Shown: positions 438 to 47,900 of the stretch, piece by piece
Position numbering within the stretch: position 1 is the stretch's first letter
Layout of the letters: every line of letters starts with the position of its first letter
NCBI GenBank assembly: GCA_001724265.1
Contig: MEDY01000195.1
Location: 1-54,396, forward strand
Length of the DNA stretch: 54,396 nt
Reading direction: 5' to 3'
From: Rhizaria sp. SCN 62-66
Taxonomy: Eukaryota
The notes under the pieces: model-generated
The model's input: only the letters and a program-made list of their open reading frames with translations
The model's database searches: none
What the model was told of the DNA's origin: nothing
Program-made: the position numbers and the translations under genes

Positions 438-884
438 TTAGATGGCGTGGTCTAGCAGTGTCGCCAGCGGAACCGTGGTGCCCCGCATCACAGCGGCCAG
501 ATCGGTGACAAAGAGCCTGAACTTGCGGTCGGCGATGGCGAAGCTCTTGGCGGCGCCGTGGTCGCGGTAGGCCACGACAAGGTGCGCCATGAGCCCGGCC
601 ACCTTGCCGCGGTCCTCGGCCGCGATGTGCACGGCGGGGAACTGCGGGTGCGCGAAGGCGTCGCTGAGCCACGCGGCGACCAGGTCCGCGGGCGCTGAGT
701 AGAGTAGCGCGAGCAGCGCCGAGGCGGCGCGCGAGATCATGTCCTGCGGCAGCAGTGGGACTCCGCCCAGCGCGAAGATGAGCGCGCGCGCGAGCAGCCC
801 GCCTGCGCGCGCCGCGGGGGGAAACAAGACCACGGCCACCCCGGGCACAGCCACGCCGAAGTGTCTCTGCTGTTGTTGTTGCTG

Positions 885-933
<49 letters not shown>

Positions 934-3900
934 TGGCCGCGGGCGTGGGGGATTGCGGTGGCACCCTCCATGAGCATGGAGCCGAGCCCGATCTCGCGGC
1001 CGACCGAGTTGGCGGCGCAGCCCATGCTGCCCGCGCACAGGTCGCGGCCCTCGCAGCGGCCCGTGGTCTGCGACGACGGACACAGCCGCGCAAACGGCGG
1101 CGCGGCGCGGTCCACGTCGCGGAACGCGGCCGACATCCACAGCAACGCGCCGCGGCCGGCGCCCGACTCCGACACGCCGGGCCACGGCAGCGCGGCGGCG
1201 GCGACGGCGGGCGGCACGGCCAAGGCCGACAGCCCGCCGTCGGGCGCGCGCAGCAGCGGCGGTACCACTGTTGACAGCAGCAGCGCGTTGAACGCGTCGG
1301 CCTGCGCGAGCGCCGAGGACGTGCTGCAGCCGCCGCCGCCGCCGCCGCCGCCGCTGCTGCTGCCGCCGCCACCGGGGCTCGCGGCGCCCGCGGCGTTGTA
1401 GGCGGTGCGGCGCGGCGACGAGGCCAGCGCCGAGTCGCCCAGCAGATCTGGCCACGCGCCTGCGCTGGGGGAGCTGCTCCCGCCGTTGTGCGCCGTGCCG
1501 CCGAAGCCGTGCGCGCCCATCCCCATCCCCATCCTCATCCCGATGCCTTGGCCGCCGTGGCCGTGGCCGTGGCCGTAGCCGTCGGGGCTGCTGTGGCCGC
1601 CCCAGGTCGCGGCGCCGGCCGTCGAGTCGGGGGGCGCGAGCCCGCCTGTGCCGCCAGTGCCGCTGCCAGTGCTGTAGAGCACGCGCGAGCGCCACAGCGC
1701 GTCGTCGCGGGCCGCCGCGGTGTAAAAGGCCGTGACGAGCTCGAGCACAGCGCGGGTGAGCGCGCGGTCCGCGGCGGCCTCGGCCAGGCAGCGCGCGAGC
1801 AGCTCGGCGACCGTGGGCAGCAGGCCGCGCGAGAGGTAGAACATGGGCCCGTAGAGCAGGAACGTCTGGTCCGCCACGGCGGCCTCGGCGGCGGCCTCGG
1901 TAGCGTCGGCGCCCGCGCTGTCGGCGGCCGCGGCGCCGGAGAAGGTCGGCGCCACCCCCAGCCCGGCCGTGACGCACTGGCATAGCGCGGTGAGCGCGTC
2001 GGCGTGCGCGAAGACGACGCCCGTGGCGCCCGACGGCGAGTGGTAGTCGAGCCCCGGTGCCGCGTAGGCAGTCACCACGTCGGCCGAGTGCCGCAGGAAG
2101 GCCACGAGCGTGTCGGCGAAGATGGGGTGCGCGGCGGCCGTGTCGCCCATGCTCGTGATCGCGGCGCCCACCATGTACAGCGGCGGCGCCGAGAGCACCA
2201 TGGGGTACGATGACAGCGCGCGCGCGGCGGCGGCGGCGACGCCCTCTGCGGCCGCGGTGACGGCGAGGTCGGGCGAGAAGAGCACCGTGGGCGGCGGGAA
2301 CTGCGTGTAGATGAAGGACGTGAGCAGGCAGCAGCTGGGCGTGATGTTGTGCACGCGATTGCCGCACGTCTCGATCATGAGCGCCAGCACGTTCATCAGC
2401 ACCTCGACCGCCGACGTCAGCGGCGACTCAACGAACGACGACGAAGCGCTGTTGGCCCCGCCGCCGGTAGTCGCGCCGCCGCCTCCGCCGCCGCTGCCGC
2501 CGCCGCCGCCGCCCGCGCCGCTGCTGGAGAGGCCCATGGGGACGCGGCTGACGTACGTGCCCAGCGAGCGCGTGGCGCCGCCGTAGATGCGGTCGCGCTC
2601 GCTCACGGCGCCCGCGCCCGCGTACACGATCGTGGCGGGCGACTCGGGCATCTGCGGCCGCGCCGCGCGCGCGAAGGGCAGGCGCGCAAGCGCAGGCACG
2701 AGGACGCCGAACTCGTGCGCGCTGGGCGCGGCTTCGGCAGCGACCGTGGCGGCGGCCAAGCGAATCGTCTCGCCCGTCTCGACGCCCTCGACCGCGGGCG
2801 CCGCGGCCCCGCCGCCGCCGCCCGGCGCGCCGCCGGGGCCGCCGCTGTCCAGGTAGGGCGCGGGCACGGCCCAGGGCGTGAGCGGCTGCGGCAACTCGTC
2901 GAAGAGCGGCGGCGAGAAGGACAGCGGCGCGCCGTGCGGCGTGGTCAGCGAGACGAAGACAAAACGCTGGATGGACATGTTGTTGTAGGTGAAGACGTGA
3001 GAGAGCCCGCGCGAGGCCATGTTGAAGCACTCGATGTCCTCCTGCGCCAGGATGTGCGTCAGCGCGCTGAAGTCGAGTGGCACTGAGCCCGAGCCCGCGC
3101 CGCCTTCGCGTTGCAGCAGCTGCTGCTGCTGGTGCAGCTGGTCCTGCTGCTGCTGCTGCAGGTGGCGTTGGATCTGCTGCACGTTGGCGACGACCGAGGG
3201 CGCCGAGGTCGAGGCCGCCGCGGCCGCCGCGGCCGCCATCTGTGGCGTGTCGAGGCCCAACGCGCGCGGTAGCGCCGACGCGGCCTCGGGGCCCGGGCCG
3301 CAGACGCCGCAGGCCTGCGCCCACATGGCCGCGGCGGCGACGCGGCGGCCCACAAAGGCGGCGTTGAGCGTGGCGGCCGTGTCGGCGAGCAGCGCGCTCC
3401 AGCCGCGCGAGGCGGCAATGACGGCCTCGTTGGCCTGGATCAGCGGGCGGCACGCCGTCGCCGCGGCGGGCGCACCCAGCGCCGAGGGCAGGCGCGCCAT
3501 GACGCGCGCTAGCGACAGCGCAAACTGCGAGAGCGAGAGCGCGCCGAGGCAGGGCGGCGGCGCAAACGACACGAGCGCCGTCTCGAGCGTCAGCGAGGGG
3601 AAGTTGGGGTCGAACATGTGTGCGAGCGAGCCCGCGGCGTCGTGGTACGCGCCGGGTGAGGCAGCCCCACGCTCGATGGCCGCCAAGTGCTGCGCGGAGA
3701 AGATGGAGAAGAAGCCGGCGAGCAGTTCGACCGAGGCGGCGACGGTGCCGGCGCACTCGCGCGTGAGCGCCTCGAAGGCCGAGGCGGCAGGGTGCGAAGG
3801 CAGCAGCATCGCCATGCGCATGTCGTCAAACGCCAGCTCCATGTGCGCCTTGGCACCAGAGGCCGAGGAGAATGGTGGCAGCAGCGACGTGCGTGCGGCC

Positions 3901-6900
3901 CCGCCGCCGCTGCCCTCCTTGGCACCGCCGCCGCACGCGGGGGTGGGGTTGCGGATGGACTCGGCCAGGTCGATGCCCGCGGCGTGGGCCTGCGCGATGG
4001 CCGCCGTGGCCGCCTGCGAGAGTAGCGCCGAGGCGTGGATGAAGATGGTGTGGCAGCTCTGGCGCGGCAGCGGCGCGGCGGCGAGCGCGAGGCAGTAGAG
4101 GTAGCGGCCGATGGGCAGGATGAAGCGCGGCAGGCACTGCGGTAGCAGCCAGGCGTAGGTGGCAAAGAGCCGACACACAAGCAGCACGTACGTCGCGTCG
4201 GCCGTGGCGGCTTCCATGTTGGGGATCTGCGACATGACGGCCTGCAACACCTCCTCGCGGCCGCCGATGCTGCCAGTGCGTGGCCCGATGGGCTTGAGCG
4301 AGAAGAACTGCACCGCGGCGACGTTCGACGCCGCCGTGGCCGTGGCGGGGAATAGCGACAGCAGATGCTCGAACAGCGGGCCGAAGAGCAGCCGCAGGAT
4401 GTAGCACTGGTCGTGGTACGTCAGCGCCGCCGCCGCGCCTCCGGAGTCGGCGAAGTCGCCTCTCGCACCGCTGCTGCTGCTGCTATTGTTGTGGTTGTGG
4501 CTGCCGTGGTGGCTCGTCTCAGCCGCGGCGAGGCCCAGCAGCCGCGAGGACGTGCCGTCGCGGGACCAGCCGGCCGCGAAGCCCAGCCCGCCCCCCGCGG
4601 CCGCGCTCACCGAGCTGGCCGCGGCCTTCATCGCCTGGAAGCAAACAAGAAATACCAAAGCGGATGATTCGATATAAGGCAAAAGTGAGATCGAAAATGA
4701 GTTTTGAAATCCAATATAGAAAATATTAAAAACGCATGCATTAATGTTCGTTTTATATCGGTTTCGCTCTCTGAGCGGCGTACCTGTCGCTCCTTGGTGG
4801 CGAGCGTCTCTAGCGCCTCGCGGGTGTGGGGCGAGACCGACAGCAGACAGCGCAGCGTGGCCGACGCGAAGGCCGAGAACGGGATGTTCGCGAACAGACG
4901 CCGGATGTGGCTGGGCTCAGCGGCAAGCGCGGCGGCGGCGGCGTGGCCCATGTTGGCGACGAGGAACTCAGGCGGGTTGGCAAAGACGAGCGGCGACACG
5001 AAGGGCGGGAGTGGGTGCACCAAGTTGTGCTGGACGAGGTAGTCCAGGTCCGGGTGCGTGATGCCTAGCGAGCGGATCAGCAGGAACACGGCCGAGTGCC
5101 GCAGGATGGCGAAGAGGTCGCCGATGGCGTCCTCAACCTGCGCCACGTAGAGCTCGACCTCGTCCGACTGCTCTGGCTCGTCGTCCGAGCGCGAGCGCGT
5201 CACCACCACGGCCGCCAGCTCCACTTGCAGCGCGGGCGACAGCTCCAGCCACGCAGTCTCGGGGTAGAACGCGCCGTTCGCCGCCTCGCCGCCGCCGCCG
5301 CCCTTGCTGTTGAGGAAAGCGACGCGCGTGAAGTAGCACCCGTACGGGTTGTCGTCATTGTCGCAGTTGCCGTCCGCGCAGGCCTGAGCCCCAGTGTCCG
5401 CGCCCGCGCCGGCGCCCGCGGCGGCGGCGGCGGCGGCGGTGGCCGTACCGACGGTGGGCAGCCCCGCGGCGGCGAGCCCGCGGTTGGCGGCGGCGGTCAC
5501 CACGGCGGCGGGCGCGCCCGCGGCGGCGGCGGCGGCGGCCTCGGCCAGCGCGGCGGCCTCGGCGCCGGGACGCTCGCCGCCGCACAGCACGATGGGCGGC
5601 ACGGCGGCCGCGCCCGCGGTCGGCGAGGAGATAATGTTGCCCTGCGCGTCGAGCGAGCTGTCGCCCAGAGGCAGGGTCACGTCGCCGTTGTCGCCCTATG
5701 TGATCAGCAGAACAAAAGCAAAGGAAGGAACAAACGCGAAATGAGAATTTGAGAGGATATACGCGTTTTAGAGCGATGAGAATTTGGGGATAAAGATCGG
5801 GTATATAATAATAAGCTACATGTAGGAAATAACAAATATTTCCTGATGAAACAATTTATATGCGTCCGACATCCTCTGTTACGTGAAGCCTCGATGACGT
5901 ACCTGGCAGAGGATCCAGTAGGGCGCGAGGCCCGCCGAGGTGAGCTGCAGGATGAGCACGTGGAAGACGATGAGGCTGAGGCGCTCGCGCATGACGGCGC
6001 AGCGCTTGCGCGTGGGCACGGTCTGCAGCGCCGTGAAGTAGGGCATGACGAGCGCCGACACGCGCGTGCGCTGCGGGTGAGCCAGCATGCACACCATGCA
6101 GTTGGTCAGCGACAGGCTCGCGTTGTCGCCGTTGACGATATAGTACGTCTCGTATTCAGCAAGCGCCAGCGTCACCAGCGCGGCGGCGCGGGAGGCCGCG
6201 TCGGCCGCGACGGCGTCCATGTAGGCGCGCGAGAAATCCGAGTGGCACGGGAGGGGGATGCAGCCTTGGCTCGCGGCGGCAGCGGCCTGCGGGGAGGAAA
6301 TAACAAAGCGAATAGAAGAGAATATACAGTAGAGTATATGAGTGGAATTTGATAATATATTTTGCAAACATGTGTGAAATATAAAAGAGGCATCATTGAT
6401 TAAAAAAAGTATCATCGATAACGTCTAATATCACCATAAAGTAGCCCACACATACCTGGTCGCGCATGGGCACGAGCATTCTGTTGGCCGCGGCGCTGCC
6501 GCTGCCATTGGTGCTGCCGCTGCTGAGCGATGCGCTAACGGTGGCCTGCGCCCCCTGCACCCAGTCCTCGGTGTCCGGCACCGCGTAGCACGAGTAGGTG
6601 CGGCGGATGGCGAGCTTGGTGACGGCGGCCAACCCGCTGGCGAGGATGACGACAGTCTCGTCGTGGCCCGCGGGCCGCGGGTACGACTGCGCGGCGAGCG
6701 CCTCGGTGAGGATCGCGGCCGCAGTCTCTGTGTGCGGGTCGTGGGTCATGAGCGTGACGAGCGCGAGCGGCAGGAAGCCGCTGCCCGCGGTGCGCAGTGT
6801 CGCCACCGAGTCCAGCAGCGGCGCCCAGGCCGCCAGGCACGTCAACACGCGCGCCGTGAGCGTGGCCGGGAAGACGGCGTTGAGGTCCGCAGCGACGGCC

Positions 6901-7988
6901 ACGCGGCACAGCGGCGCGCCCACGTGCATGGTGAGGATGGAGCGTACGCGGACCAGCGGCGTGGGCAACAGAGCGGCCGCGGCCGCGGAGCCGGCCTCGT
7001 AGGCGGCGGCGTAGAGCGGGATCGCGTGAGGCGCCACCGCGGGGTCCGCCGAGAGCAGGAATGGGTACAACGGGGCCAGCAGGTGGTCGCAGAGCGCGAC
7101 GACCGAGTCCGCGAGCGCCGACAGCGCGGCCGACACTTCACTGTCGCGGCGGAACGAGAGCGCCGTGCGTGACCGCTGTTCCGCCAGCGCCGCCGCCAGC
7201 TCCAGCGCCAGCAGCGCCTCGGGGGGCGGGATGCCCGCGACCACGCCCGCGCCGGAGGTGGCGCTGGCGCTTGTGGCGGTGGAGGCGGAGGCGGCGGCGA
7301 GCGCGGCGGAGAGGAACTGGTCGACCGAGTTGTCGACGAGGGCCTGGAAGGCAGCGACGGAGGCGAGCTTGCTGGTGATGAGCAGCGCGAGCCGCGAGTA
7401 GGGGGAGCTCGGGGGCACAGGCGCGGGCGCCAGCGCGGCCGGCAGCCGCCACCAGTACTGGCCCTGCGTGCCCCGCATGCCGTGGGCCTGGGCCTGGGCC
7501 TGGGGGCCCTGGGGCGGGAGCTGGCCCTGTTGCCGCAGCTGCGCGTGCAGCGCGGCCAGGTCGCCCGCAGCCGCCGCGGCCGTCTACACCAGCACGGCGT
7601 GCATGGCGGCGCAGCGCAGCGAGAGGTGGTGCTGCAGCAAGCGGCGCACGCCGTCCTTCTCGTCCTCGCCCGCGGTGGTCCACACGAGACGCACCTTTTC
7701 CTCGACCAGCGACGCGCCGTAGTGTTGCGAGTGCGCCGCCGCGCACAGCGCGCTGTCGCCGCCCTGCAGCAGCGCGTGCGCCACGTCCCACGCGTACGGC
7801 GACGCCGAGAAGGCGTTCAGGAGCGTCTGCGCCGTGGGGTCGCCGGTGGTGTAGCAGGCCGAGATGATGGCCAGCAGCGTGTCGGCGGGGGGCGGCGCGG
7901 AGGGGTCGATGCCGAACGGCGCGCACGCGGCCGCCAGCGCGGCGAAACGCTCGTCAGCGGCGGCGGCAGCGGCGGCGGCGGCGGACAT
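438..7988 (-). CDS. Importin-beta family karyopherin, importin-13/transportin-SR-like (~2,341 aa, expanded by low-complexity inserts; one in-frame TAG)
   Basis: Exons 7988-6456, 6286-5903, 5695-4784, 4634-438 join in frame across AT-rich GT-AG introns (7026 nt); stop is TAA. The N-terminus LLNAFSASPYAWDVAHALL...HYGASLVEEKVRLVW resembles an IBN_N domain. The C-terminus AWLSDAFAHPQFPAVHIAAEDR...KFRLFVTDLAAVMRG resembles the end of importin-13. The model requires reading through TAG at 7586-7584. Confidence 0.8.
867..935 (-). repeat. CAG/CAA trinucleotide repeat encoding 23 Gln in the karyopherin
   Basis: A ctg/ttg run on the + strand translates to Q23 in ORF 438..4682. Confidence 0.9.
7584..7586 (-). 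other. In-frame TAG (codon 135) inside karyopherin exon 1
   Basis: ...GTG CTG GTG TAG ACG GCC GCG... ORF 7584..8321 and ORF 6393..7478 are in the same frame, separated by 105 nt of open GC-rich sequence. Confidence 0.85.
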
Positions 7989-9855: not shown

Positions 9856-10476
9856 ATGTCCACTCCCGACACCCCCAACGCTGCTGCCGCAGCCTCGACT
9901 GTTGTTGCTCCCGCTTCGGTCGACTCAAGCTCTGCCGCTGCCGCTGCCGCTGCTGTGAGCGTCAACAGCGACGCCACCGCTGCCACCCAGTCTAACTCTG
10001 GCAGCGACAGTGACCGCGATCATGAAAATGACGGCAATGTCAGTTAGAAGACTGACAAGGCTGACAAGGCCCCTGTCGTCGCGGAGGCGCCCCAACACGT
10101 GGACATCACGGACCCGCTGGAGATCAAGCACGCGCTCGACTCGGCGCTCTACTCGCTCTTCGTCGACACCTACGGCTTTGCGCCCAACAACGTGCTATCG
10201 AACATCCGCATCGCGCTCTCGCTCGCGGGCGTCGCCATCGCCGGCGTCGCCTACCTGGTCTACAAGGACCTGCAGTCGCCGCACCACGTCGCCATGTCGC
10301 ACGCGCTCATCCTCGCCTACTTCGCGCTGCAGGTCGCGCTGACCGTGTTTACCATGTACTGCGTCGGCAGCGAGCTCGCGCGCTTCCAACCCCTCACCGC
10401 CGACAAGGCTGGGAAGAGCGGTTCCGGCAAGGGCGGGGACAGCACGCGCGCTGCTGCTGCTGCTATCAATGGTGCT

Positions 10477-11342: not shown

Positions 11343-14300
11343 TCACTCGAACAGGACAGTGAATCCGCGCTCCTCAAGCGCCTTGGCCGACAACGGCATC
11401 GCCTTCCTGACCGCACTGGCACCCCGGGCGGCGGCGCCCACAGCAGCGTCGCCAGTGGCAGTCGCAACAGACTCGGTGTGGACGTGCACGTGCGCGTCCT
11501 CGACAACGATCTCGACGCCGTTGCTGTCGACGATCACGGCGTCTACGATGTCGGCGCGAATGAGCTGACTGGCGTCGCCGTCGGAGTCACTCACGCTGCC
11601 CGCGCTGCTCTTCGCACCCTTGGCGCTGCCCTTGCTCGGGCTCTTGGCCTTCGTAGGCTTCGCGGCGGGGAGCGCGACGTTGCTGAGCCCAATACTGGCC
11701 CACACAGGCAGCTCTTTAACCAGCACGGCCGCGCCCACCAACGGCCGCAGCGCGATCTTGGTGACGGTGAGCGGGCCCACCGCGCTGTCCACCGTCGCTG
11801 TCACAGGCGCGGGCACTGTGTGGACGGAGCAGTCCGCCGCGGGGACCGAGGCCGGGCGCGAGACCGCGTCCGCGGCCTTGGCGACGGCGGCGGCGACGGC
11901 GGCGGCGCTGAACGGCTCCGCGCCCACGGCCGGCGCGTGGTGCACGATCACGGCCCAGTTGAGCTTGTTCTGGATGGCCGCGGCGACGGCCACCGAGTCA
12001 GTGGTCACCGCCACGGCCGGGTCCGCGCCCAGCGCGAGCAGCACGGCCGTGGCGGCGTCGTCGCCGCGCATCACCGTGTCCTGCAGCGGCGCGCGGCCGC
12101 GGCTGTCGGGCGCCGAGACCGAGGAGCCCGCCAGGGAGAGCGCGCGGATCAGCGTGGCGCGCGACGGCGGGGCCGCGAGCGCAGCCAACGACGACAGCTC
12201 CAGCGGCGAGGCCGCAGTGGCAGCACCCGTGTTCGAGGCGTCGTCGAAAGCGAAGGACGTGTTGACGACAGTGGTGAGCGCTCGGAGCGAGGCGAGGTCG
12301 CGGAGCAGGAGCCGGTGGTCGAGCTCGCTCCACAGGGACACGGCGGCACGCGAGCCGGCGGGAGTGTCGTTGTCAGGATCGACGAGGTCGTCGCCGACTA
12401 CGAGTTTCGTGGAGGCGGCAGCGCGGGCCAGCCAGCGCCGACTCTCCTCGTTGCTTCCACCGGAGCCGGACTCAGGTGCAGAGTCACGCAGCCGTTGCTG
12501 TTGCTGTTGCATCTGCGCCTGCGCCTGCGTGTCGAGACCGAGGATAGCGGCCGACACGCCGCACACGGCCTCCGCAGATTGCGCGCGGTACAGTGCGCTG
12601 CCGTCGCTGAAGTTCGCGGCCGCGGCCTCCTTGGCCGCCGCCTCGGCCTCGGCCTGGGCCTCAGCCTCGGCCACCGCGGCGCTCACCGCGAGATCCATGT
12701 TGCCCGGGGCTGCCTGCGCCCGCGAGCGCGCCTCAGCCGCCACGACCGCCGCCGCAGAGCGCACACTCGCGCCACTGCCACCGCCACTGCCGCTGCTACT
12801 GCCGCTGCTATTTCCGCTGCTATTGTGGGTATTGCTGTGGGTATTGCTGAGGGCGGGCTCAGTCCAGAGCGCGACGTTGTGCGCCCAAGAGCGGCTCGTG
12901 TCGCTCCAGAGCGCGTCGGTGCCCGCAGCAGGGGCGCCGGCGGCGAGCAGGATGGCCGCGGCCACGGCGTTGCGCGAGCGCAGTGCGATGATAAGCGGCG
13001 TCTGTCCGTCCAGGTCCGGCGCGTGCAGGGCCGGGGCGCTGCGCCGCATGCGCGTGGCCGCCTCGCCCGTCGCCGCAGCCGTGTGGCCCGTCTGTAGAAG
13101 CGGGGACGCCACGAGGCGCGCGGCCGCCGCGGGGGACAGCGGTTCTGCGCTCTCATTGGTGCGCATGCCGAAGTTTCCGCCGAAGATGTTCCCCGCGCTC
13201 TCGTCGTCCGTGTCCGGGACAGCGCCGTCGGCGTCGCTGGTGTTGGCGTACACAAAGTCGAGGAGGAAGCGCAGCAGCACGGGGTCGTTCCAGCGCGCGG
13301 CGGCGTGCAGCAGACGGCTGCCGTCGACCTGCGAAGGCTGGCTCGCCGCCGCGGCCAGCGACGCGCGCACCGCCTCGGCCATGCTCGCGGGCGCCGGCGC
13401 GCGCGACACCGGCGCGGCCGAGTCGCTGGCGGCAGAGTCAGCAGCAGGAGCCATGTTGCCGTTGCCGCGACGGCTGCTCTTACCCCTGTTCCTCTTGCTC
13501 GCGGTCGCGTCCGAACCCGGCGGCGGAATGAGGCTGCTCGTCTCCTTGGCGTGCAGCTCTAGCAGGACCTTCCTGCGCGCGCCCACCCCCATCAACGACA
13601 CGGGCGCCAGCAAAGCCCAGTGGAATGGCTTCACCGACGGCGACTGCGACGACACCGACGACGGTGACGAGGCCCACGTGTTCGGCCCAGCAACAGCGCC
13701 GCCAAGCTTGCCCCGGCGCGCGCTGCCGGGCCCGCTGGTGCTGCAGTCAACGAGCGCGCGGAGCGTCGGGTGCGCACGCATGGCGGCCCGCTCGCGCAGC
13801 GCCCAGGGCAGCAGGCGGTCGACCTCGGTCCACTGCTCCCACGCCACGCTGCCGTCGTCGTAGCTCTTGTAGTAGTAGTTGGCGGGCGAGGGCTTGTAGA
13901 TGCTGACGCCGCCGCTGCTGTTGAGCGGCACGGGCGGCCGGCGGACGACTGTGATCGCGGTGCCGTCGTTGCTACGGAGACTAGTGGTACGGCTGCGCGC
14001 CGAGGGCTTGACACTCGCAAAGGAGGATACGTACTCGTGAGTCTCAGCAGCGACAACACTGCTGTACTCGGACGCGGGCTCAGTGTCCGTCTCCGTCTCT
14101 GTCTCAGGCAAGGTAGGCTCAAACTCAGCCACGGCCCCAGCATCGGACTTCACCGCGTCACTGCCAATGCCGCTGCTGCTGCCGCTGGCTCTGATGCCGG
14201 TGGAGTTCGTGCTCTCGCTGCTGCCCTGTCCGAGGAGCTTCATCTGGTCGGCAGCGTCACCGCCACCCAAGCCGTCAGGACGCAGCGCCAGCGCGGCGAC

Positions 14301-39200: not shown

Positions 39201-40731
39201 TCGAAGTCGGCGAAGCTGTTGCTCACAGTCACCAGGCTGCTCTCGATCCAGGCCAGCGCGCTGCTCTGCGCCGCGGCCCGCTGTTGGCGTGCAGCGCCGT
39301 CGGCCGCCGCAAGTACGCTGTCAGTGACCGTGCGCAGCAGCTCCTGGCGGTACTCGCTGAGCAGACGTTCCCAGTGAACCCTGGACGGAGAAACAAAATA
39401 TAAGAGAATGTCAAGGTGAGATAAATACAATGAGCCAAACTAATATACCGCATCGACATTTACAAAGGATACGCATTAAACATCATATTTAGCGTATTTA
39501 TCGAATAAATCGTCGTTTTGTGAATGTTCACGCACCTTACGAGTGCCCTCGCCTCGTCCTCGGCCCGCTCCGTGGCGGCGACAGTCGCGAGCATGCGCCT
39601 CGACCGCTGCCCCGCCTCGGCGGCCGCCCGGGCCAGCAATACGCGCCGCAGCCGCAGCATCCGGCGGTGGCAGCGCGTGAGCCCGCGGCCCAGCGCGTGC
39701 AGCCAGCGGCGCTGCTATGAGAAAGCGGGTGCCAGCGGGGCGGTGAGCGCGTGCGCCGCGGCTGAGTAGGGGCACAGGAAGCATGGGTTGCCGACCAAAG
39801 TAACCGGGGGCGCGGAGGTGTAAGTGCTCGCGCTGGCGTCTAAGTGGCCACGGTCAGTGACGGCTTCGGCATCGCTAGCGTCGTCGCTGGCGTCATCGAC
39901 GATGTTCTCAGTGCGAGTATTAACTGTGAGGGATGCTGATGCGGTTGGAACGGGAGCCGCCTCTGCATCAGTCATGGACACAGTATGATCAGCAGCCCTC
40001 CCACTGCCACTGCCACTGTCACTGGCAGTCGCACTTTCACTCGTACACGTACTGCCACTGCCAGTCCCAGTCTCAATAGCAGAGGCAGTTGCATCATGAG
40101 CACCCGGCTCGTGAACTTCAGTCTCTGTCAAGACACCAGGTCCAGCCCCACCCGCAGCTGCGGCTTCCGCCTCGGTCTGCAGCATAGCTTCGTTGTCTGC
40201 GATGACGTTGCGACTCGTCTGCACGCTGTTGTAACGGAGACGAGTCGGAGAGTGTTCTGCAAAGGGACTCAGTCCCCTCAACGCAGCAGCGCGCCCAGTC
40301 CGAGGAGTAAATGCAACGCCAGCGTGAGCACCGCGGGCGCTCGCAGCGGGACTCGCGCCGCCGTCTGCGCCTCGAACGCTGGTGCTGCCATGGGCCCCGG
40401 TGCTAGTGTTATGGGCGCGAGCGTGTGCAATTGCAGTGCTGGAGCTGCCCCTCCGAGGGGTGGACTGCTCGCTGTTCAGCACAGCTGTCGCCGCCCCAGG
40501 GGAACGGATGTTAAACTGCGAGCCAGGGGTAGCGTTACTGCTGTTGCGACTATTCTGCGCAGCGGCGGCGGTTGAGGCAGAGTCTGCGTCTGAGGCTGAG
40601 GAGGCAGAGGACGTTGTTGGAGTCACTGGCGCTGCAGCGGTGGTTGCCTTTGTAGCGGGGCTCGGACCGTACAGTGGCACGGGCGTCGTTGGCACAACCC
40701 TGCGCGGGGTCGTGCGGCGGTGTGTGCTCAT
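30259..40731 (-). CDS. Divergent RAD51-paralog/RecA-fold-like protein (~3,403 aa) with a very large SQ-rich insertion; one in-frame TAG
   Basis: Exons 40731-39536, 39380-37751, 37644-30259 (10,212 nt); stop is TAA. RecA-family motifs appear in order: GFGAIDALLG, GLRAGSITELLAPPAHTQAWTAHLCL, RVMWVDCSGG, LSRIEV, VALLVLPCLDRVF, LLHRIARECGVAVLVTN, RPKLGRVWGLGVDRRLLL. The model requires reading through TAG at 39717-39715. Confidence 0.7.
39715..39717 (-). other. In-frame TAG (codon 339) inside exon 1 of the RAD51-paralog-like gene
   Basis: ...GCT TTC TCA TAG CAG CGC CGC TGG... The frame continues into ORF 39460..39660 (offset 54 nt) and on to the splice donor at 39535. Confidence 0.8.
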
Positions 40732-41214
40732 TTTTGAGCGTTATGATAAGCAAAGGTTAGGCAGACCTGGACAGAGGAAGGCGCGGAAACATGAGACAAA
40801 AAAACCAACCTTAAGTGGGTCGAGATCAAGGATCCAAGAGAATATATTTTAAAAACAAATATGAAACAAACATTGAAATATGATATCATGCTCGATGTGC
40901 TATACGACGATCAAATAATGTTCTGTCTAAGTGAAAGTTTGGAGTCCCACGAAGTCTGCCACAAGGCGGGGCAAGCGCGCGACTTTAAATTCGCGTTTGT
41001 GGTTAGATTGACAAAACACGACTAAAGGAGGTGTGTACTAGACTCAAAGAACGTGTATTATTATAAACCAATTCCACAATATCACAAAACTACTACTATG
41101 TACTAAAATAAACAAAGGCGTGCATCTCGCGCCTTATCTCCTCAACGCACAAACATTTCTCCGCCGACAAAGCTCACATGTGTCGGTGCTTTGCGGCCGC
41201 TCACTGCCGGTTGC

Positions 41215-44978: not shown

Positions 44979-47900
44979 TTACTGGAGGCCGATGGAGTTG
45001 AGGGCGTAAATAAGGATGATGGAGAGCGGGAAGAGCGCAAGTACGACGGCGGCCTGCCACATCTTGATCGTCTGGCGCGTGCCGATGCAGCCGACGATGA
45101 AGGTGACGGCGAGGATGCCCGTGACCTCGGCCGTGTAAGTCCACGCGAGCCCGCGGAAGTAGACGAGGCCGAGGAAGATCGACAGGCAGAAGGTGTTGTT
45201 CATGGTGGCGGCGCCGTAAAGCGACGAGAGCGTGAGCCCCATCGCCATGTCGGTCTTCTTGGCCGCGAAGCGCAGCGACGCGATAACCTCGGAGGCGTTG
45301 GACGCGAGCGGGGTGACGATGAACGAGACGTAGAAAGCCGGGATTGAGAGCTTCTCGCCGACGCAGCCGATGACGTCGACCATGGGGTCCGCAAAGATGG
45401 ACACGCAAAGCGTGCCGCCGAGGATGAAGATGGCGGCCCAGCGGAGCTTCTGGCTCGAGGTCATGGCGGCGTGGCCGTGGTCGCCGTCCTCGTCGTCGTC
45501 TTCGTCGTCGTCGCTGCCCGCCGCGCCGTCGTCGCCGCCGCCGACGATGGCAATGCCTTCGTAGCCGTCGCCGCTGTTGAGCAGCCCGTAGCCGTTCTTG
45601 GTCGTCGTGAGCGCGTGCTTGCCGGCGTTGGTCGGGGAGTTGGAGCCGGAGTTAGAGCCGGAGCCGACGAGGGGCTGGACCTCGCTGCTGGCGCCGGCCT
45701 TGCTCTCATCCGCGTCCGCGGGCCCGTGGTAGGGCGAGGCGTGATGCGACACGGCGGCGGGCTCGACCAGGTTGACCAGCAGCAGCCGCACCTCGTCCTT
45801 GGTGAGGCGGCAGTCAAGGTCAGAGTCGTGCGAGTAAAAGAGGAACTTGACCTGCGTGCGCGTCAGCGGCAGGCTGAAGCGCGTCGAGAAGGCCTCGAAC
45901 GCGTCCAGGCCCACAGTCGTCGCAGACCTAGAGCAGCAGTTGTGACGCAGGAGAGGGATGGAAGTGACAAGTGAGAATAAAAGTGAGACATCTGACGATA
46001 CATATGATTTCAATTAACGATAGAATTTGAAAGGAATAGTAATAACACAAAAATCTACATAATATATAGTCAGTGATATAAATATTACTGACTATATGTA
46101 CATCAAAAACAATTCTTTTGTGAAGATTTTCCAGTGAAGTGAACCGAAGCAAAAGACGTACTTGGAGCCTGCGCCGAGCGCGGTCGCGAAGAGCTTGTCG
46201 AAGACGGCGGCATCCTGCTGTGCCAGCACGGCGTAGGACACCTGCAGTTGGTCCAGCGAGGCGGTGTGGTTGTGGTTGAAGTACTGCGTGAGCTTGGGCG
46301 AGGCGCAGGCCCAGGCCGGCACGCCCGGGTGCAGCGCCTGGCGCTGGGGCTTCGTCGCTGAGGCCGCGGCTGACGACGCGGGGTCGACCTTGGTGACGTC
46401 GAGGTGGCGCGTGTGGCCAGCGACGCCCGAGGAGACGGAGTCGCCCGCGGCGGCGGCGGCCACGGCGGCGGCGGTGACCGATGGCGAGGAGAAGGTCGCG
46501 GCCGCGATGGCCTCGGCGCTGGCGTCGTGCGCGTGCGTCGACAGCGCGAACGCCGCAGTGGGGGCATAAGCGGCCGCCCAGGCGTGGAGCAAGTAGCGGG
46601 AGGCCTGGGTAAGCGTGAGCGTGATCGTGGTCTGCGCGGGGTCCGCCAGGAAGGCCTCGATCTGGCGCCGAGTGTCGGCGGCCAGCGCGGCGGGCACGCG
46701 GTGCGTCGCGGCCGCGGCGTCGGCGGCGGGCGCGGGCTGCGCCGAGAGGTACTGCGGGAGCAGGTAGTCTTCGATCCAGTTGACGAACTCGGCGCGGTTG
46801 ATGCTGCCTGTGCCGTCGTGGTCGACCATGTTGAAGGAGGCGCGCGCCTGCGCATCGTCGAAGGCGTAGCCAATGCTCTCCCAGCCGCGGCGCATCTCGG
46901 CGAAGTCGATCTCGCCGTTCTGGTCGTGGTCGAACAGCGAGAACAGGCGCTCGGCGTCGGTAAAGGGGTCTGCGCCGCCCAGGATGTGCGTCAGGTTGGA
47001 GAAGGCATCGACCGTTGTCCAGTTCTCCTCGAGGCGGCGCTGCTTCTCGCGGACCGTCTCGATGGCGTCGCCGTCGGTGTAGATCCAGTAGACGTAGCCC
47101 AGGAAGGCCAGGAAGGCGATGACGAAGCCGAAGAGTGCGAATTTGGACTCGTGCGCCGCGCCGTGATCCGCGTCCTGCATGTAGAAGAAGGCGGGGACCT
47201 GGATCAGCAGGTACACCAGCGCTGTCGCCATCATAACCCTGCGGGCGAACAGAGGAACCAACAACGAGTGACGGAGTCAGAGTTTTGATAATTGAGAGGA
47301 TTTCGAGAGTATATCGACGATTTGCAAAATAAAATTGAAGTGGTAAGCAATAATTAATGAAAAACACTTAACAAAAATAGAGTAAATATGAGCGATATTT
47401 CTCGACGTACCAGGCGCCCTTGGGCGTGGTGTTGATCGAGGTGGCGCCATTGCGAGTCCAGGAGAACTTCTTGGGCGCGACGGGGACCAGCACGGACACG
47501 GTCTTAGACTCGACGGCGCCGGTAACCTTGTTGAGGACCTTCTTGACCTGCTTGCGCTCGCGCATCTGCGCGCGGCCCTCACGGCCGCCGATTGCGCGGC
47601 GGTTGAGGTAGATGCCGACGCTGTAGGGGATGGTGAGGAGCATGATGGTGGAGCCGGCGAGCGTGCCGACGCCGATGTTGAGCTCCTCCTGGACCGTCTC
47701 AATGTCGCCCAGGCCGGACATGAGGATCATCATGCCGTCGGGAAAGGCACCCAGGATCGGGATGAGCACGCCGCCCACGATGCCGGGGCCGCAGACGTCG
47801 AGCAGGAACTCGCAGCCCTCGGCCATGAACTGGCTCGCGTTGAGCAGGATGTAGCCGTCTATAATATCAGTGAAACAGAGTGCAGAGAAAGTTCGATGCT

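Follow-up and report, generated by a model that had tools for sequence, protein, structure and literature searches.

UAG as a sense codon in described nuclear codes

When nuclear genomes reassign stop codons, UAA and UAG nearly always change together, and the exceptions in which only UAG has changed are described, in the excerpted text of a survey of such codes, as reading it as leucine, glutamine, or serine (PMC11687900). In the same excerpts and those of an earlier report, these exceptions are the rhizarian exLh (leucine), Iotanema spirale (glutamine), the phyllopharyngean ciliates (leucine, glutamine), Protocruzia (glutamine), and Scotinosphaera (serine) (PMC5304391, PMC11687900); for exLh and Iotanema the corresponding tRNA was, according to the excerpt, only predicted (PMC5304391). 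Glutamate is the meaning of both UAG and UAA in peritrich ciliates and in Blastocrithidia (PMC11687900). The code of Oligohymenophorea sp. PL0344, as described in the part of the report available, reads UAA as lysine and UAG as glutamate and stops only at UGA; UAG is common there (10,160 Pfam-aligned codons) and is served by ten CUA tRNA genes (PMC10553269).

The genome of Rhizaria sp. SCN 62-66 resembles the UAG-only codes in that UAG is very probably a sense codon while UAA and UGA stop translation, but none of those codes, in the excerpts cited, assigns UAG to glutamate, its probable meaning here. With PL0344, as excerpted, it shares both this assignment and a CUA tRNA most similar to tRNA-Glu, and it differs in that UAA is a main stop, UAG is rare, one CUA tRNA gene was found, and the organism is not a ciliate according to a dynein tree. 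It also differs from the peritrich and Blastocrithidia codes described in the survey excerpt: of 60 TAAs none had coding sequence on both sides, and TAA is the terminal codon of the genes for eRF1, ubiquitin, and the karyopherin-like protein described below. Like Iotanema, for which the excerpt gives a T32G substitution, the organism has an altered Thr32 in eRF1 (T32S), while the L69A substitution reported in the excerpt for the eRF1 of exLh, which is also rhizarian, is absent from the eRF1 found here. In the literature searched, which was mainly open and taken without supplements, no report of UAG as glutamate together with UAA as stop was found, although a prior report is possible, and the reading of UAG as leucine in exLh, known from an excerpt (PMC5304391), was the only rhizarian code change found. 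The cause of the in-frame TAGs is very probably a nuclear code change of a known kind, whose assignment is apparently new.

An in-frame TAG in a karyopherin-beta-like gene

The window, the whole analyzed stretch of 54,396 nt (contig MEDY01000195.1, assembly GCA_001724265.1), contains near one end a long minus-strand gene, which is interrupted by a TAG. The first-pass annotation had placed this TAG in frame in a GC-rich region free of AT-rich introns, and both statements hold: the GC content at third codon positions is 0.96 upstream of and 0.94 downstream from the TAG, and no intron of the genome's type was found around it, as the listed GT..AG spans that could excise the TAG and keep the frame, 20 in number, have 50%–80% GC and GTG donors. 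The three predicted introns of the gene are of a different kind, all of them in phase 0, 149–207 nt long, with 32%–38% GC and the donors GTATGT, GTACGT, and GTACGC (Table 1). Splicing the four exons in silico gives 2,341 codons with a single TAG and a terminal TAA. The earlier estimate that about 2,200 residues follow the TAG agrees with the 2,206 codons counted, but their placement in the same genomic frame does not stand, because the unspliced frame of exon 1 closes at a TGA at 6393 and three phase-0 introns separate the exons.

Table 1. Features of the karyopherin-beta-like gene and other in-frame TAGs in the window
Feature	Position	Strand	Description
In-frame TAG	7584..7586	(-)	Codon 135 counted from the ATG at 7988; putative sense codon, most likely Glu
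Exon 1	6456..7988	(-)	511 codons, ATG at 7988, contains the TAG; P0124 matches residues 37-129 and 388-466
Predicted intron 1	6287..6455	(-)	169 nt, GTATGT...CCGCAG, ~32% GC
Exon 2	5903..6286	(-)	128 codons; matches P0124 339-432, E 1.4e-8
Predicted intron 2	5696..5902	(-)	207 nt, GTACGT...ACATAG; its TAG would be a splice acceptor and no codon
Exon 3	4784..5695	(-)	304 codons; weak match to P0124 603-627, E 0.004
Predicted intron 3	4635..4783	(-)	149 nt, GTACGC...TTCCAG
Exon 4	438..4634	(-)	1,398 codons and true stop TAA at 438-440; matches P0124 728-804, E 2.8e-5
Second in-frame TAG	10045..10047	(+)	Codon 64 of the neighboring SPC25 (signal peptidase subunit) gene
Probable third in-frame TAG	39715..39717	(-)	Frame 39460-40740; both sides coding-like by eye and by a one-sided filter

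Two circumstances that could have undone the observation, a read error and an intact second copy of the gene, were checked. A contig assembled from DNA run X3 covers positions 7253–7948 at a depth of 7.5 with the TAG unchanged and no other letters, which excludes a one-off read error at 7584–7586; X3 and a possible source run belong to one study, and X3 does not represent another population. Run X5, from another study, covers positions 7494–7741 with two other letters somewhere in that span. Among the contigs listed for RNA run X6, none covers the karyopherin TAG or that of the SPC25 gene. When the genome was searched at the DNA level, the window itself was the only full-length match (1 of 35). 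The database gene calls break exactly at the TAG, into proteins of 134 aa (P0122) and 361 aa (P0121); since standard gene callers split such genes, the database proteins of this organism are mis-annotated. The observation is partly confirmed as real, with the TAG not being damage, and the analysis supports the proposal that it is read through as a residue within one karyopherin.

The identity of the product was approached through its homologs. Pfam assigned no family to residues 1–134 or to exon 1, and the other exons gave only sub-threshold, unrelated matches. A search of 1.84 billion protein representatives returned four matches, which were the two exon-1 halves, a repeat protein, and P0124, a protein of 1,273 aa that itself has no Pfam match and no PDB relative. 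P0124 matches all four exons in order, and within exon 1 it matches both before the TAG (37–129, E 1e-12) and after it (388–466, E 5e-7). The language-model features of P0124 are nearest to karyopherin-beta clusters (0.95; Xpo1, IBN_N, TNPO3/IPO13 repeats, exportin-T, exportin-5), and all 10 of its best named matches belong to the same family or clan, with a low recognition score (1706). The karyopherin label of the first-pass annotation finds some support in the features of this homolog, while its IBN_N and importin-13 labels are not confirmed, as Pfam finds neither in the gene's own sequence. The karyopherin-beta-like assignment rests on P0124, and the subfamily may be importin-13, transportin-3, exportin-T, or exportin-5. 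Members of the karyopherin-beta family are usually about half as long as the protein encoded here, which contains low-complexity inserts and lacks a Pfam match. An alignment of orthologs at codon 135 had been suggested as a check, but P0124 aligns only at residues 37–129 and 388–466, so that codon 135 falls outside. Because the residue at this codon cannot be read from orthologs, the site is not the strongest single one, contrary to what had been proposed; instead, eRF1, UBE2J1, and the CUA tRNA, all located elsewhere in the genome, carry the case.

This genome's proteins are inflated, the karyopherin included (2,341 residues versus 1,273 in P0124), and between window positions 11343 and 37644 the minus strand has one very long frame after another (1,139–2,461 codons), all rich in Ala/Ser/Gln low-complexity inserts. 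The TAG of the SPC25 gene lies within an acidic, charged linker upstream of the Pfam domain PF06703 (E 4.3e-14, residues 89–171), and is unchanged in an X3 contig covering 9058–10333. The frame of the probable third TAG has no Pfam match. A further TAG at 186–188 on the minus strand, 250 bases beyond the karyopherin stop, has coding-like sequence upstream and belongs to a short frame (63–350) without a Pfam match. A near-identical short stretch by an exon boundary occurs at unrelated places, in L030:2274-2660 and at window positions 44979–46013, and is possibly a repeat.

TAG in coding context in the sampled part of the genome

To compare the three stop triplets, a codon model was trained with frames of kinases, ABC proteins, and DEAD-box proteins (77 in all). 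It then scored every distinct stop triplet, 49,459 after de-duplication, in 208 partly overlapping sequences that total 985,823 bases and come from the ~3% of the 34.9-Mb eukaryotic assembly that was read. Among the stops preceded by coding sequence, coding sequence also lay downstream for 10 of 38 TAGs, while it did so for none of 60 TAAs and none of 63 TGAs (Fisher p 1.9e-7); one of the 10 two-sided TAGs came from a locus fetched because of its TAG. The TAG share of 0.26 is like those of the rare sense codons CGA (0.26), AGA (0.30), and TTA (0.30), and unlike those of TAA and TGA. Non-coding sequence followed 50 TAAs, 49 TGAs, and 10 of the 38 TAGs, the last being a share like that of rare sense codons; those of the latter that were inspected were in a wrong frame, intronic, or beside a donor, and true gene ends were identified in few cases. 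The genes of eRF1, the three ubiquitins, and the window karyopherin-like protein have true ends in TAA. With the same filter, TAG was found at 25 sites versus ~5,600 for GAG, which is ~0.4% of GAG usage, and this scarcity is consistent with a single tRNA gene and selection against TAG.

After removal of splice acceptors, 11 exon-interior TAGs remained in conserved proteins, which are eRF1, five kinases (one of them in an insert), UBE2J1, an ABCA transporter, a Brr2/ASCC3-like helicase, a DEAD-box helicase, and a ubiquitin-derived domain. Among 142 kinase matches, nine contained only TAG (five exon-interior, four acceptors), one only TAA, located in an intron, and four had mixed stops, which in the three inspected lie in introns. 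Scans of other families gave no exon-interior stops: none of 20 ABC_tran matches had a stop, the only stop among 43 DEAD matches was a splice acceptor, and both stops among 18 dynein AAA_6 matches were acceptors. In six dynein loci, all seven inspected TAGs were intronic or acceptors and none lay in an exon. These data make it very probable that TAG is a sense codon genome-wide, while TAA and TGA appear to be kept as stops. In a divergent, lower-GC kinase family (L136, L137, and L138, on G000:C148, C49, and C9), each gene contains several in-frame TAGs, which exceeds the number in genes of other kinds.

Changes in eRF1 and a CUA tRNA

Over 234 residues the eRF1 of this organism aligns without gaps to human eRF1, with the TAG opposite E107. 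In 120 homologs this column holds E in 108, D in 11, and V in one. The TAG is also present in a separately assembled genomic DNA contig (L208), and the only eRF1 gene found contains it, the other match being pelota-like by translation. The protein has serine at human Thr32 (T32S) and at Gly57 (G57S), each found in none of the 120 homologs, and lysine at Thr58 (T58K), found in one of 120, which is the closest relative, P0001. Thr32 contacts the G of UAG by bonding, and in Iotanema, according to the excerpt, it is replaced by glycine (PMC5304391). P0001 is 85% identical, has T58K in common with the eRF1 found here, retains Thr32, and has valine at the TAG column, which suggests that the constraint at this column is relaxed in the lineage. 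Of 32 metagenomic eRF1 loci, 31 are distant (69% identity or less); no stop was seen at the TAG column among those shown, and three have glutamine there. Because the TAG lies inside eRF1, synthesis of the release factor needs UAG read-through, and a feedback loop between release-factor output and read-through is conceivable. This TAG is located in the eRF1 N domain, at locus L048 (G000:C63:103370-103699).

A pattern search gave eight matches, among which was one gene for a tRNA with a CUA anticodon (G000:C84:76008-76080), and no second copy turned up when the genome was searched with its DNA. This tRNA is identical to the genome's own tRNA-Glu(CUC) at 47 of 73 letters, while the next isotype reaches 41, and its first five acceptor pairs are those of both own Glu tRNAs. 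It carries U11-A24, U13-G22, A46, and A37, lacks base 47, and is followed by a T-run terminator; these five tRNA features are Glu determinants in E. coli, as given in the excerpted source (PMC9976931). C36, whose strong contribution to Glu identity in E. coli is given in the same excerpt (PMC9976931), is lost, and all determinants compared here are those established for E. coli. The anticodon loop has C32-A38, while the own Glu tRNAs have C38. The same A38 change in human tRNA-Glu(CUA), according to the excerpt, raised UAG suppression in human cells more than 20-fold; in the same system GluRS charging was unimpaired by the CUA anticodon, and the optimized form inserted ~95% Glu and ~4% Lys (PMC12204705). 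No tRNA with a UUA anticodon was present among 16 matches of a short-arm, intron-free tRNA pattern, in a tRNA set that is incomplete; 63 of 506 tRNA candidates were scored. Pyrrolysine, the default ARAGORN label for CUA, was rejected, as the tRNA body appears tRNA-Glu-like. Leucine, a first guess drawn from exLh, was also rejected: three pattern matches on C404 were ordinary tRNA-Leu(CAG), and leucine scored 13.7 bits below glutamate in the comparison that follows.

The residue at TAG

When each of 10 residues was placed at the TAG in seven sites, the summed Pfam scores were 605.1 bits for E, 603.5 for K, 602.4 for Q, 601.8 for D, 600.1 for S, 597.2 for A, 594.2 for Y, 592.9 for V, 591.4 for L, and 590.0 for W. 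Glutamate leads K by 1.6 bits and Q by 2.7, with K being best at two of the seven sites and D at one. The column of the UBE2J1 TAG holds D in 67, E in 18, H in 12, S in 11, T in eight, G in two, and N in two of 120 homologs. Among the genome's own kinase paralogs, the residues at TAG columns are E/A/D and E/D/P, while a CaMK site is opposite A, K, and Y, and the Brr2 site is opposite K and N. Glutamate is thus clear at the eRF1 column and compatible with the UBE2J1 and kinase columns, while Q or K columns at four sites speak against it. Mixed E/Q/K columns are what would be expected of glutamate: if TAG is rare and disfavored, its copies would mostly be recent mutations of GAG, CAG, or AAG at tolerant sites, while glutamine would give mostly Q columns. 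Together with the tRNA, these data indicate that UAG, though little used, probably specifies glutamate in a nuclear variant code in which UAA and UGA terminate.

Glutamine, as in Iotanema, would imply either that GlnRS charges the CUA tRNA or that a further tRNA, not seen here, is responsible, and we consider it unlikely. It is absent from the TAG columns of both deep alignments (0 of 120 eRF1 and 0 of 120 UBE2J1 homologs), and the tRNA body is unlike the own Gln tRNAs (36 and 32 of 73 letters), although in E. coli, as the excerpt states, GlnRS recognizes U35 and aminoacylates amber suppressors (PMC9976931). Individual sites do point to it, since the TAG of the ubiquitin-derived domain stands in place of a CAG (Gln) codon of the genome's own ubiquitin, the DEAD-box site is opposite H, Q, and Q, and several TAGs lie within poly-Q tracts. 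In these tracts, however, TAG (3) is as rare as the non-synonymous GAG (6) and AAG (8), compared with 192 for CAA, and mutation of CAG to TAG would seed TAG in Q sites whatever it means. A model of neighboring residues applied to 25 TAG contexts, at least two of which are in a wrong frame, placed K and Q ~7 bits above E, with K first. Lysine, or glutamate mixed with lysine or glutamine through a loosely charged tRNA, could draw further on its second place in the Pfam sum, its first place at two of seven sites, the K opposite the TAG in Brr2 and in an ABCA paralog, and, from the excerpted sources, the ~4% Lys of the engineered human tRNA (PMC12204705) and the frequent charging of amber suppressors with Gln or Lys (PMC9976931). 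It is nonetheless highly improbable, because K occurs in none of the 240 homolog rows at the eRF1 and UBE2J1 columns, and the tRNA matches the Lys tRNAs at 39 of 73 letters and does not have their acceptor stem.

Two other explanations would leave the code unchanged. If the TAGs were assembly errors, nonsense alleles, or pseudogenes under the standard code, their rarity, the apparent origin of the assembly from a mixed community, and the two other letters in the X5 contig over the karyopherin TAG would be accounted for; yet errors or decay would also yield TAA and TGA, of which none was found in coding context, and those in two examined kinase matches are intronic. The TAG in the sole eRF1 gene found, kept in the contig L208, and the presence of the CUA tRNA likewise make this reading very improbable. 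The TAG could alternatively be removed or changed in RNA, by splicing of a GC-rich micro-intron or by editing of UAG to UGG or CAG. The listed X6 contigs leave the site uncovered, there are GTG...TAG spans at this site, one 6 and one 12 nt long, and the TAGs are acceptors or intronic in four of the nine kinase matches that had no other stop and in every dynein match. In the eRF1, UBE2J1, and kinase alignments, however, exactly one residue is needed at the TAG and none is spare, tryptophan was last of the 10 residues scored, and neither removal nor editing explains the CUA tRNA and the eRF1 changes; we give this possibility very little weight.

A possible route to glutamate insertion at UAG

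If UAG is decoded as glutamate, the components found could have arisen and could act as follows. In a duplicated tRNA-Glu(CUC), C36 would have mutated to A and position 38 would have become A, and the resulting CUA tRNA, charged by GluRS, would pair with UAG and not with UAA. The T32S change in eRF1, with G57S and T58K, would loosen its grip on UAG, and the ribosome would insert glutamate at codon 135, giving one karyopherin of 2,341 residues. On balance we favor, with less confidence than the glutamate assignment itself, a joint reading of an undescribed, early-stage code in a probable rhizarian flagellate, in which UAG is glutamate and UAA and UGA are stops. In this joint reading the Glu-derived CUA tRNA independently acquired the C32-A38 suppressor optimization, the T32S eRF1 may still partly stop at UAG, which makes up <1% of Glu codons, and the UAG within eRF1 could link release-factor output to read-through.

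Such a code, with UAG as glutamate and UAA as stop, would be the missing intermediate toward those UAG-glutamate codes that gave up UAA, and, given the low use of TAG, the single tRNA gene, and the TAG within eRF1, the reassignment may still be under way. Because a genome and not only a transcriptome is in hand, both the tRNA and eRF1 are visible, and they are testable in standard reporter systems.

Lineage and other features of the genome

Dynein heavy chains are encoded by about eleven genes in this genome, and the best named match of one of them is from Plasmodiophora. In a quick single-gene dynein tree it was placed with Plasmodiophora, Lotharella, and Bigelowiella (SH-aLRT 92), apart from other named taxa including Tetrahymena, and from this sequence comparison the organism is probably rhizarian. 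If this holds, the change would be a second, independent code change in Rhizaria. Other markers gave no lineage placement: in the eRF1 tree only P0001 groups with the eRF1 found here, the 18S rRNA gene has diverged strongly and contains introns, and the ubiquitin junctions carry no lineage signal, as only monomer genes are present. The small-share RNA runs (X6, X9, X11–X14) give no evidence on habitat. The proteins P0250, P0251, and P0001 come from close relatives, with a dynein clade support of 100, and would be useful for dating the code change.

Ubiquitin is encoded at L188 (G000:C3:11235-14019) by a tandem array of three monomer genes, each with ...GG-His-Pro-Gln-stop as its end, without polyubiquitin; it is unusually divergent, and two copies apparently miss 15–27 residues in the assembly. 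The TAG-bearing ubiquitin-derived domain (L246, G000:C681:2900-3400) shares a frame of 629 codons with AT-richer sequence to which it is fused; the part of this frame downstream of the domain may resemble a phage-type S74 chaperone domain, which would suggest a viral or mobile element. The 18S rRNA gene (L039, G000:C706:4459-8903) is extended to 4.4 kb by several insertions resembling group I introns, the first of which contains an open reading frame that we take to resemble a His-Cys box homing endonuclease.
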